Below are positions 1-2,956 of a stretch of 2,956 nucleotides of DNA, piece by piece; within the stretch, counting starts at the first letter, position 1; every line of letters starts with the position of its first letter. The stretch lies in the NCBI GenBank assembly GCA_000004985.1, contig GG739240.1. One strand, 5' to 3'. Both the position numbers and the translations under genes were made by a program. Under the pieces are notes generated by a model that saw nothing but the letters and a program-made list of their open reading frames with translations, searched no databases and had not been told where the DNA came from. This stretch comes from Naegleria gruberi. Its lineage: Eukaryota.

Positions 1-760
1 TTTCTTCTTCTTCTGATTCAGATTTTTTACTTGATTTTCTAGTTGATTTTTTTCTGGCTACTCTTGACGGTGGTTCTTCTTCTTCAGATTCGGAATTAGA
101 TTGTTGTTCTTGTTCAAGTACATGTTCTTCTTCTTCTGTTTTTTTCTTTTTAGATGATCTTGTTTCATATTTTCTACCTTCATTCTTGGAGGAGGTATCA
201 ACAGAATTGCTTTTGGAATTTTTTTTGGTTGGTTGTTCATTTAATTTAATAATTCTTGTTTTAAATGTTTTTACACTCTTATCATTCTCGTCAACCAATT
301 CCAACCACTCGTGATCAAGATCAGTGGTTTTACTGAAATCCATTTCTAAAATTCCACACACCTTAAATGACTTTTTTAATTTTTTAATTCCTAAAATGTA
401 AAATAATGATGAAATGTTGGATTTTTTAAATCGTACAACAGATTCACTGATTAGTTGGTTTCCAGTATTCTTGATAGTAATGCTTTTAAAGAGATCAGTT
501 GGTTTTCCCTTAATATTTACAGGGTCCCCTAATTTGTAATAGGTTTCAAAGGAGTTCTCATCTTCTGAATTTTGCTTGTTAGTTGTTTGCTCCGGAATTT
601 TAGATGAATCGGGTGTCGATTCATGAACATCAATTGTTGATTCAGAAGTACTAGTGGACGATGGTAAATTATTGTTGGATTTTGATGATGAAATATTATC
701 TCCAACAACATTTTCTTGTATTTCGTTACTTGTTGATTGTGATGATTCACTTGAAGACAT
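1..760 (-). CDS. Protein-coding gene, N-terminus complete (ATG at 760-758), C-terminus beyond the window start. Ser/Asn/Thr-rich acidic N-terminus, a roughly 110-aa non-repetitive core (…YYKLGDPVNIKGKPTDLFKSITIKNTGNQLISESVVRFKKSNISSLFYILGIKKLKKSFKVCGILEMDFSKTTDLDHEWLELVDEND…), then a Lys/Glu-rich charged tail (…KKKKTEEEEHVLEQEQQSNSESEEEEPPSRVARKKSTRKSSKKSESEEEE…). Function unknown.
   Basis: Hand translation of the reverse complement from 760 gives an uninterrupted reading frame of 253 codons to position 1: MSSSESSQSTSNEIQENVVGDNISSSKSNNNLPSSTSTSESTIDVHESTPDSSKIPEQTTNKQNSEDENSFETYYKLGDPVNIK… An in-frame TGA lies 9 nt upstream of the ATG (complement of 770-772), so this is the first ATG of the frame. 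The start context is A-rich (AAAAAAATGTC), as in yeast. Codon use is AT-rich yeast-like with no CTG codons. The ORF track omitted it, presumably because it has no stop inside the window. Confidence 0.75.
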   Translation of the reverse strand, partial: MSSSESSQSTSNEIQENVVGDNISSSKSNNNLPSSTSTSESTIDVHESTPDSSKIPEQTTNKQNSEDENSFETYYKLGDPVNIKGKPTDLFKSITIKNTGNQLISESVVRFKKSNISSLFYILGIKKLKKSFKVCGILEMDFSKTTDLDHEWLELVDENDKSVKTFKTRIIKLNEQPTKKNSKSNSVDTSSKNEGRKYETRSSKKKKTEEEEHVLEQEQQSNSESEEEEPPSRVARKKSTRKSSKKSESEEEE

Positions 761-930
761 TTTTTTTAGTCAATTTTAATGCCTTATTAAATAAACATCT
801 TTGAAAATTAAATTGTATTCGGAATTTAATGATGAATCATTTTTCACAAAAATTGCATTACTTTTCGGCTGAAAATATTTACCAAATAATTGTCCAATTG
901 TTTTTGGTTTTAAATTATATGTTTTTAGGT
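761..930 (-). promoter_or_regulatory. Probable 5' UTR and proximal promoter of the minus-strand gene. The segment is AT-rich and lies between the ATG and the first repeat copy.
   Basis: Position only: it sits immediately upstream, in the gene's orientation, of ATG 760-758 and contains no ORF. I could not pin down a clear TATAAA. Confidence 0.3.
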
Positions 931-1135
931 TTTGGATCCCATGTCAACCCCTATTTATTAAGCTTTTCTCCTTAAATACATTAACAATATATATCACAAA
1001 TGATGTCAAAAGATGGTGATGGTAATGGGGCACAATATACGGCTGATGTGAAATTGTTAAATATTTATATATATCAAGTTATGATGGTGGCTAGTGGCAA
1101 TAAAATCACTTGATCAAAATTATTTTTGCCGGTTG
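931..1135 (+). repeat. Direct repeat, copy 1 (about 205 bp). It starts TTTGGATCCCATGTCAACCCC… and contains TATATATA at 1067-1074, which is LTR-U3-like if the repeat is an LTR.
   Basis: Base-by-base alignment to 2753-2956 at a constant offset of 1822. There are only two substitutions in the first ~188 bp (1017 g vs t; 1098 c vs t). The last ~17 bp are more divergent (one substitution, one 1-nt T-run indel, then breakdown), which suggests the homology ends near 1135. Confidence 0.9.
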
Positions 1136-1156
1136 ATCAAACCGAAAAACGCGCGG
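1109..1156. promoter_or_regulatory. Cluster of palindromic and CpG motifs at the distal edge of repeat copy 1: TTGATCAA twice (1110-1117 and 1133-1140), GCCGG (1128-1132), CGG-N9-CCG (1130-1144) and ACGCGCGG (1149-1156).
   Basis: The sequence is cacTTGATCAAAattatttttGCCGGTTGATCAAACCGaaaaACGCGCGGaaaag. There are five CpGs in about 30 bp, against roughly one CpG per 80-100 bp elsewhere in the window. The cluster is about 370-400 bp upstream of the minus-strand gene's ATG. Confidence 0.2.
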
Positions 1157-1231
1157 AAAAGTTAAAAATAGATTCAAGTTGATGTGAAAATGGCTCAGAA
1201 TCGAAAGGATTAACAAAGCTTACTACTATAT

Positions 1232-1265
1232 TGGAAGTGAAAGTGCCATTTGGCACTCACTTCCA
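1232..1265. repeat. Interrupted palindrome that could form a hairpin: TGGAAGTGA-aa-GTGCCA-tt-TGGCAC-TCACTTCCA. The stems are 9 + 6 bp with a 2-nt bulge and a small loop.
   Basis: Read directly: the reverse complement of 1257-1265 (TCACTTCCA) equals 1232-1240, and the reverse complement of 1251-1256 (TGGCAC) equals 1243-1248. Confidence 0.85.
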
Positions 1266-2095
1266 TCAACTTTATCATAGAAATCACTCTTGAAACATGA
1301 ATTGTACTATAATGTGTGAGTAACATACTGTTGTTGGAATTGATCAATAACTCTATGAAATGACTGAGATGGAACGTAAACCTTCTTCTAAGGTAAGTTA
1401 GTGGAATTTAAGATACTGAGCCATGAATGTGAAACTTTCTCAGATTGTTCTCCTCATCTAGGGAAGTGTATTCATATTTGATACTTGTATGATATTTTGA
1501 AAAATGAATGAGATGGAGTATATTCTATATGTTGAAATATGACAATTTGACAGATTGTTATTATTATCATATTGAATTCGATTCTAAAACACTAAAAATG
1601 ATACCAGTTGTATATCAGTGTGACTAAACGTACATGGTAAAGTTACACGATAATAGGATGTACTTTCATTGAGATAGAGTGTACACTTGGATATAATCAC
1701 TCTTGACATTGAACATTTACTGATTGACTGAATGTAAGTTTCATGAATTGTTTCAATACGTATATGGATGTATATAAATGATGTATATAATGTGTGTTAT
1801 CAATTCTAGACTAATTTCATATAAAATAAGTGAGTTGGAGCATAATCTTTGATTTTATGTCAAAGTTCTATAGTAAAATGATAGAGTTGACAACTCAATA
1901 TCTACTGAACCAATATTAATGAAATTGATATCATATGCTAATTAGAGTGTCTACATATCATGGTATTAATTTCAGTGAAAATGGAGTTGTTTCTGGTCCC
2001 TTCAGATTTCCATCCATTCTCCTTGACAATCACCATGTACTATCCACTGGATGCATTTCTTGAAATGAAAATATATAATTTGATGAAAGTTCACT

Positions 2096-2116
2096 TTATT
2101 TGAGATGTAGAACACG
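2096..2116 (+). repeat. 21-bp near-identical direct repeat, member A: TTATTTGAGATGTAGAACACG.
   Basis: It matches 2398-2418 (TTATTTGAGATGTTGAACATG) at 19 of 21 positions. The spacing is 302 bp, about two array periods. Confidence 0.7.
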
Positions 2117-2397
2117 ATATTATCATTTATTTTGAGATTAGTAATTTTTCCTATAGTATCATCCTTAATTGTCTTAATTGACCTAAAGAGGTAAAGGAGA
2201 GATTTCAAAACATAAAATAAATGATATTTACGAGATGTACTATTGATTTCCAACCGATTGATATGTATTTTGTAGATTGAGGATGAAGTTCTGAAGAGTT
2301 CCTCCTTAACTTACCAAGTCAACCCTGATATTTCACCCTTTACCTTAGTGAATGATGGAATGTTCACTAAAACGTCTAAAAACTGAATCATATACAT

Positions 2398-2418: not shown

Positions 2419-2752
2419 TGGTAAAGTTGCATAGAGTGGTCATTTTCCAGATTTTCATCCATGTCCACAGTTGACTAGATGGCATGTTAGAGTTGAAATC
2501 GTGAATATAAAAGTGAAAATAAACTTAATATTCTATCTATACTCATCGAATGGAGCATTTTCATATATAATTTATTGATTGAAGTGATGTATTTGGGTTT
2601 GGATATTAATCTGCGCTCTTAAACATCATTATTTATAAGACTTCATATACATCAATATATATCATTAGATAGGAAATGTTCACGCCTACATGTTGATATA
2701 TAATTTTAATATTGGTTGCTATCAAATAATGGAGATAATCAACTCGTTTGGG

Positions 2753-2956
2753 TTTGGATCCCATGTCAACCCCTATTTATTAAGCTTTTCTCCTTAAATA
2801 CATTAACAATATATATCACAAATGATGTCAAAAGATGGTGATTGTAATGGGGCACAATATACGGCTGATGTGAAATTGTTAAATATTTATATATATCAAG
2901 TTATGATGGTGGCTAGTGGTAATAAAATCACTTGATCAAAAGTATTTTGCCGGTGT
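2753..2956 (+). repeat. Direct repeat, copy 2. It is cut by the window end, so its true 3' boundary is unknown.
   Basis: About 98% identity with 931-1135. The flanks upstream of the two copies do not match each other (the ten bases upstream of each copy, 921-930 vs 2743-2752, are only about 50% similar). Confidence 0.9.

Follow-up and report, generated by a model that had tools for sequence, protein, structure and literature searches.

MITEs are defined by their many dispersed copies, Helitrons can form tandem arrays, and recombination sites of the loxP/FRT type consist of two arms of ~13 bp around an asymmetric crossover spacer of 6–8 bp. Tandem clusters of small-RNA genes have, to our knowledge, been described in Euglenozoa and not in Heterolobosea; Naegleria is a discoban relative of Euglenozoa, and we know of no description of the organisation or processing of its small non-coding RNA genes. 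These are the described systems against which we compare an interrupted palindrome in the spacer DNA of Naegleria gruberi. In the literature on Naegleria snoRNAs, palindromes, transposons, Helitrons, Fanzor and centromeres, no description of such an element was found. The annotated TE content of N. gruberi is 0.28% (preprint 10.64898/2026.06.24.734286), which lowers the prior for a transposon, and the regulatory DNA elements of Naegleria are still unknown according to a 2026 review (PMC13315211).

The window analysed (the whole stretch of DNA, 2,956 nt of contig GG739240.1, assembly GCA_000004985.1) contains the 5' part of one gene and a spacer of 2.2 kb (Table 1). Translation of the minus strand of 1–760 agreed with the N. 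gruberi predicted protein XP_002676208.1, whose gene lies on a contig of 461,873 bp, at 251 of 253 residues, which identifies the window as N. gruberi nuclear DNA; the two residue differences (M140T and S232P) indicate that it derives from a strain, haplotype or assembly slightly unlike the reference. No Pfam domain was detected in the N-terminal 253 residues of NAEGRDRAFT_68595, and no homologue of the protein was found outside N. gruberi among 5.8 billion proteins. The DNA to the right of position 760 looks non-coding: the longest ORF there is 83 aa, and Pfam searches of the six-frame translations of 761–2956 returned no domain and no decayed transposase, RT or Rep. The hairpin lies in this spacer, 472 nt upstream of the NAEGRDRAFT_68595 start codon. 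On the plus strand at 1361–1399, ATGACTGAGATGGAACGTAAACCTTCTTCTAAG followed by GTAAGT has the look of a short first exon that ends in a canonical 5' splice site, and there is no downstream ORF of any length to back a gene.

Table 1. Coordinates of the features of the 2,956-nt window (strand '.', feature without strand).
Feature	Position	Strand	Basis or remark
NAEGRDRAFT_68595, 5' part, 253 codons, start codon 758–760	1–760	-	translation and protein match
C/D-box-like unit	829–872 (wider 824–887)	+	C box, D box, 4–5-bp terminal stem
Direct repeat copy 1	925–1136	+	self-alignment, ~97–98% identical to copy 2
C/D-box-like unit, with duplicate	1000–1046 (wider 994–1051); duplicate 2822–2868 (wider 2816–2873)	+	C box, D box, 4–5-bp stem
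Direct word GATGTGAAA, candidate TSD, left copy	1181–1189	+	abuts left outer arm
Outer inverted repeat, left arm ATGGCTCAGAATC	1190–1202	.	possible left terminal inverted repeat; closing stem in folds
Interrupted palindrome, 34 nt	1232–1265	.	sequence, RNA and DNA folds, window shuffles
Outer left arm TGGAAGTGA	1232–1240		
Bulge AA, left arm	1241–1242		
Inner left arm GTGCCA	1243–1248		
Centre TT	1249–1250		
Inner right arm TGGCAC	1251–1256		
Outer right arm TCACTTCCA	1257–1265		
Outer inverted repeat, right arm GATACTGAGCCAT	1412–1424	.	pairs with left arm; closing stem in folds
Direct word GAATGTGAAA, candidate TSD, right copy	1425–1434	+	after right outer arm; also start of degenerate repeat D4
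Perfect small palindrome AGTGTACACT	1678–1687	.	in possibly paralogous module 1655–1720
Direct repeat copy 2	2747–2956	+	1822 nt downstream of copy 1; runs into window end

The original prediction, made from the letters alone, had described a palindrome of 15 paired positions with a single 2-nt bulge, GC-richer than its surroundings, and this description proved exact. The 9 + 6 = 15 symmetric positions are all Watson-Crick, with no G-U pair, and GC content is 47% (16/34) compared with 30.1% across the window; the left arm is itself an internal tandem (AAGTGA-AAGTGC). When folded as a single strand, the 34-mer formed 9 + 5 = 14 pairs and a 4-nt loop. The comparison of fold energy with composition-matched controls, which had been proposed as a check, separated the two clearly: the RNA fold of the 34-mer had an energy of -20.6 kcal/mol while shuffles gave -6.2 ± 2.4 kcal/mol (z = -6.0, 0/200 as good), and the DNA fold had an energy of -12.3 kcal/mol (z = -5.45, 0/200 shuffles as good). 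The outcome that was to refute the prediction therefore did not occur. The 40-nt window over the hairpin scored -21.4 kcal/mol, identically on the plus and minus strands. In a z-score profile of 150-nt windows, those containing the hairpin (1126–1350) had values between -2.3 and -3.3 whichever strand was folded; besides these only 2101–2325 folded better than shuffles, on the plus strand only. As a strong structure the hairpin stands alone, and apart from these two stretches the spacer is not unusually structured.

The region around 2101–2325 includes an imperfect palindrome of 134 bp at 2107–2240 (arms of 49 nt, 71% complementary; self-BLAST E = 3.5e-9), which as DNA folded slightly better than its shuffles (z = -1.6); as RNA, the window 2101–2250 gave z = -3.0 on the plus and -1.0 on the minus strand. 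The proposal that the spacer is generally foldback-rich was rejected, given the z of -1.6 for this palindrome as DNA and the unstructured state of most of the spacer.

The hairpin is enclosed by a second inverted repeat, perfect over the first 9/9 positions of its arms and paired at 12/13 overall (13 nt, 92% complementary), which can be extended by eye to roughly 35 bp at ~63%. A short non-coding unit of 235 bp (1190–1424) is bounded on either side by these terminal inverted repeats; the hairpin lies off-centre within it, and its terminal bases do not fit the usual hAT termini. The outer arms formed the closing stem when a 243-nt segment was folded as RNA on either strand and as DNA (z = -5.0 for the plus strand as RNA, at -67.2 kcal/mol; -4.2 for the minus strand; -3.4 as DNA). 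In the intact segment, G-U pairs gave the flanking long-range stems an advantage of ~8 kcal/mol on the plus strand over the minus strand. With the hairpin deleted the segment still gave z values of -2.7 and -2.5, alike on the two strands. A direct word, ATGTGAAA, is present at 1182–1189 and 1427–1434, the right copy being offset by 2 nt from the right TIR, and was counted four times against 0.58 expected. A TIR with at least 9 perfect bp together with an 8-bp flanking direct repeat arose in 12/2000 shuffles (0.6%). The similarity of the direct word runs on into the unit (CTCAGA) and forms part of the degenerate direct repeat D4, in which 1181–1203 resembles 1425–1447 and 1426–1458 resembles 1536–1568, and for these reasons the reading of the word as a TSD is uncertain.

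Further degenerate repeats and recurring words make up the spacer. Positions 2093–2289 and 2394–2590 are 61% identical, and a motif of ~16–20 nt, approximately AAATGA(A/C)TGAGATGGA(G/A), recurs on the plus strand only (at 1358, 1502, 1663, 1824, 2094 and 2395), with a matching strand bias in word counts (plus versus minus: TGAGAT, 6 vs 0; GAGATG, 5 vs 0; ATGGAG, 4 vs 0). The spacing of this motif is ~150–300 nt and no longer monomer could be aligned; a satellite with a 150-bp monomer was rejected, as lags near 150 and 300 bp were only mildly raised and mean pairwise identity was 0.44. A palindromic core, AGTG...CACT, was found four times (1093–1110, 1242–1257, 1678–1687 and 2915–2932) compared with 0.27 expected, each followed by a word of the type AATCACT(C)TTGA, exact at 1282 and 1695. 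This suggests that the cores with their downstream word are paralogous modules that have since decayed, the long palindrome being confined to the one at 1232. The module at 1655–1720 and the hairpin module have in common the AGTG...CACT core and the downstream word AATCACTCTTGA, a similarity that is marginal (10/300 and 63/1000 shuffles scored as well). When the two were aligned with MAFFT, the left arm and loop of the hairpin stood opposite TTGAGATAGAGTGTACACTTGG and the right arm fell inside a 24-nt block found only in the hairpin module, as would be expected had an inverted copy of the left arm been inserted afterwards to form the right.

On the other scale of repetition in the window, 925–1133 and 2747–2954 aligned at 97% over 209 nt. 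The hairpin starts ~96–99 nt beyond the point where the alignment of copy 1 ends, in agreement with the distance of about 100 bp given originally. The two copies may be a short pair on either side of unique DNA, or copy 2 may open a second tandem unit of 1.8 kb; if the unit is tandem, a second hairpin would be expected at ~3054–3087, 98 nt past the window end. Copy 1 (901–1125) is unusually unstructured and folded markedly worse than its shuffles on both strands (z of +1.0 to +3.2 in 150-nt windows). A near-palindrome, CCGGTTGATCAAACCG, lies at 1129–1144 around a TGATCA centre, where the copies stop aligning and copy 2 leaves the window, and could mark the repeat boundary.

Searches of the whole window and of two sub-regions against Rfam 15, with lax filters and E values up to 10, returned nothing near a gathering threshold; the best match over the hairpin scored 16.8 bits against a threshold of 45, to an unstructured lncRNA model. 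ARAGORN detected no tRNA or tmRNA in the window. The C/D-box-like units listed in Table 1 have a C box (ATGATGA or ATGATGT) and a D box (CTGA) 44–47 nt further on, an architecture matched three times compared with 0.39 in shuffles (P = 0.013), two of the three matches being one duplicated sequence. C/D covariance models at both units scored below threshold (15–22 bits, where Rfam gathering scores are 43–90). The 20 nt upstream of the D boxes were compared, as presumptive guides, with complete eukaryotic rDNA units from metagenomes, and against these the best pairing was 8–9 bp, the same as for shuffled guides (P ~0.5), where a guide needs at least 10–12 nt of complementarity ending beside the D box. 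A snoRNA cluster was rejected as unsupported, though not finally refuted: the boxes are enriched, yet their guides pair with eukaryotic rDNA at chance level. The hairpin was also rejected as an H/ACA snoRNA hairpin, since it has no pocket, its sole interruption is the one-sided 2-nt bulge and the nearest AGA stands 13 nt after the stem rather than at its base, and as a pre-miRNA or Dicer substrate, its stem being 14–15 bp where ~21 bp or more is needed.

Other known elements were compared with the locus in the same way. The sequence past the hairpin (TCAACTTTATCATAG on the plus strand and ATATAGTAGTAAG on the minus strand) contains no CTRR (CTAG, CTAA, CTGA or CTGG) 10–12 nt downstream of the hairpin on either strand, and a Helitron 3' end was rejected. 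The same was concluded for an LTR retrotransposon or TRIM with the direct repeats as LTRs and the hairpin region as PBS, for which TG...CA termini, a PBS within a few nt of the 5' LTR, a polypurine tract and RT/IN remnants would be expected: most hallmarks went unmatched, the hairpin lies ~96 nt past copy 1, no RT or integrase domain occurs in six frames and the window has no tRNA gene. The length of 34 bp fits the core of a tyrosine-recombinase site (loxP/FRT type), but the spacer is 2 nt (TT) and the arms are nested palindromes. The stretch GGAAGTGAAAGTG resembles metazoan EICE/PRDI motifs (ETS/IRF-like words), and a site of this kind was dismissed, since the factors concerned belong to metazoan families. 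A search with the hairpin core, its bulge and loop positions unconstrained, gave no match in JGI metagenome contigs, IMG/VR viral contigs or GTDB prokaryote genomes. Neither a 25-nt probe covering the left outer inverted repeat (1190–1214) nor the direct-repeat probe had a match in the IMG/VR viral contigs.

Taking these data together, we tentatively favour, with a probability of about 0.4, a DNA-level quasi-palindrome that arose by local sequence turnover, within or as part of a small MITE- or foldback-like unit, and that has no dedicated function. One arm would have been copied in inverted orientation from the other, through a template switch or snap-back during replication or repair, and this inverted duplication would have taken place inside, or as part of, the 235-bp unit bounded by short inverted repeats. 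The palindrome would be inert in duplex DNA; where the region became single-stranded, during replication or transcription, either strand could snap back into a hairpin of 14–15 bp at about -12 kcal/mol, and the main expected effect would be mutational (polymerase pausing, slippage or local rearrangement) rather than a dedicated regulatory or RNA role. That the palindrome originated by inverted duplication, belongs to a mobile or foldback unit and lacks a host function is inferred from the following. The palindrome pairs throughout by Watson-Crick pairs with equal energy on both strands, a feature expected of an inverted duplication that arose recently at the DNA level and one that an RNA element need not have; it is nested in a second inverted repeat, flanked by a direct word and set in a non-coding, repeat-built context, the module alignment has the pattern described above, and no coding or known RNA-family signal is present. 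Counted against local turnover are the TE-poor genome, the ambiguous TSD, the off-centre position of the hairpin and the marginal paralogy. Two further points oppose a DNA-level reading: the advantage of ~8 kcal/mol for the flanking stems on the plus strand is what an RNA-level element would show, and a GC-rich perfect stem in AT-rich DNA also fits selection for a stable hairpin. Among the four functions that had been proposed for the palindrome, only the small foldback element or recombination-prone DNA structure gains modest support (from the nested inverted repeat, the TSD-like word and the strand-equal Watson-Crick folding), whereas the Rfam searches and the guide test gave no positive evidence for an RNA stem.

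An inverted repeat with a short loop, one bulge allowed, reached 15 pairs in 2/1000 shuffles of the whole window, and the palindrome is significant within its window (p ~0.002). The genome of N. gruberi, at ~41 Mb, amounts to ~14,000 windows of 3 kb, so that at this p per window tens of equally good palindromes are expected genome-wide by chance; the earlier assertion that it is far beyond chance thus calls for qualification at the scale of the genome, the more so as the palindrome was singled out for its striking look. Pure chance, with no duplication history and with arms drawn from locally common short words (AAGTG twice and CACT twice) that make a 15-bp match more probable than it seems, is an unlikely explanation to which these expectations nevertheless lend weight, together with the tandem make-up of the left arm and the local over-representation of AGTG/CACT words. 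It is opposed by the energy of the hairpin, at least 5 kcal/mol better than in all 40 dinucleotide shuffles of the window (best 40-nt window over both strands: mean -13.2 and lowest -16.4 kcal/mol, against -21.4 observed), a lead that is due to the hairpin being GC-rich as well as long, by the rarity in shuffles of an enclosing inverted repeat that has a direct word beside it, and by the other repeat structure of the neighbourhood. A candidate site at which a DNA-binding protein would bind as a dimer (as part of a promoter, origin or insulator), with TGGAAGTGA as its half-site, we regard as decidedly improbable. Its two-fold symmetry and its place upstream of NAEGRDRAFT_68595 in an AT-rich spacer are consistent with such a site, as are the recurrence of AGTG...CACT cores at 1093, 1678 and 2915 and the copies of the half-site with one mismatch at 1335 and 2579, which bring the matches to four against 0.95 expected. 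This count is only nominally raised, since 2/200 shuffles reach four and two of the four are the arms of the palindrome itself; moreover, a nested palindrome of 34 bp greatly exceeds the usual length of dimer sites, and a distance of 16 bp between half-sites is atypical.

A role at the RNA level would take the form of a stem-loop in a putative plus-strand non-coding transcript of the spacer, acting as a processing or 3'-end signal (an RNase III-type substrate) or as a helix of an RNA of ~235 nt whose ends pair (1190–1198 with 1416–1424), and the transcript might come from a tandem small-RNA gene cluster as known in Euglenozoa. The stability of the RNA hairpin (z = -6.0) and of the 243-nt segment, with its G-U-dependent preference for the plus strand, argues for this reading, as do the restriction of the recurrent motifs to the plus strand and the two C/D-like units upstream on that strand, with their enrichment (P = 0.013) and sub-threshold C/D model matches. 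We consider it doubtful all the same: even with lax filters no Rfam family came near its gathering score, the C/D-like guides paired with eukaryotic rDNA at the level of shuffled guides, two of the three C/D matches are the same duplicated sequence, and the hairpin itself lacks a pseudouridylation pocket, is too short for Dicer, lacks G-U pairs and is equally stable on either strand. In an extended form of this proposal the hairpin would mark each repeat of a non-coding tandem array with 1.8-kb units and would serve as a signal for processing or recombination in a small-RNA gene cluster; the C/D-like units would then be genuine, unusually short snoRNAs whose targets in Naegleria rRNA escaped the comparison with metagenomic rDNA. 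This we hold to be very improbable.

What the palindrome signifies differs between these readings. Under the preferred reading of a locally made or transposon-derived quasi-palindrome it matters little in itself and flags a repeat-rich, possibly assembly-breaking region in a genome reported to be nearly free of transposons. It would matter more if the 235-bp unit proved to be present in many copies, as a MITE family so far unannotated in a TE-poor protist, or if the hairpin were transcribed and present in all of the 1.8-kb units, which would give a first glimpse of small-RNA gene organisation and processing in Naegleria.

The tandem snoRNA clusters of Euglenozoa (Euglena and trypanosomatids) are resembled in the ~1.8-kb direct repeat and the two C/D-like units on one strand, whereas the presumptive guides show no above-chance pairing with eukaryotic rRNA, the Rfam scores are far below threshold and the hairpin matches neither the C/D nor the H/ACA architecture. 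The Helitron 3' terminal hairpin has its counterpart in a GC-richer palindrome of at least 16 nt in AT-rich DNA beside tandem-like repeats, although the locus has neither a CTRR terminus nor a Rep/helicase remnant. With MITEs and TIR DNA transposons the locus shares a short non-coding unit with inverted-repeat ends, an 8-bp direct word and an internal hairpin sequence, as well as placement in intergenic AT-rich DNA; it differs from them in that the candidate TSD overlaps a degenerate direct repeat and the 235-bp unit has no link to any transposase. Template-switch quasi-palindromes are an origin rather than a family with diagnostic sequence features, and the likeness to them consists in a perfect Watson-Crick inverted copy of the neighbouring sequence, whose arms are separated by a very short spacer and differ by a single indel, and in the position of the right arm in a module-specific 24-nt block of the marginal paralogue alignment. 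Hairpin-capable inverted repeats of spacer DNA form a known kind of sequence, whether they resemble MITEs or result from template switching, and the palindrome described here would be an instance of that kind in a little-studied protist.
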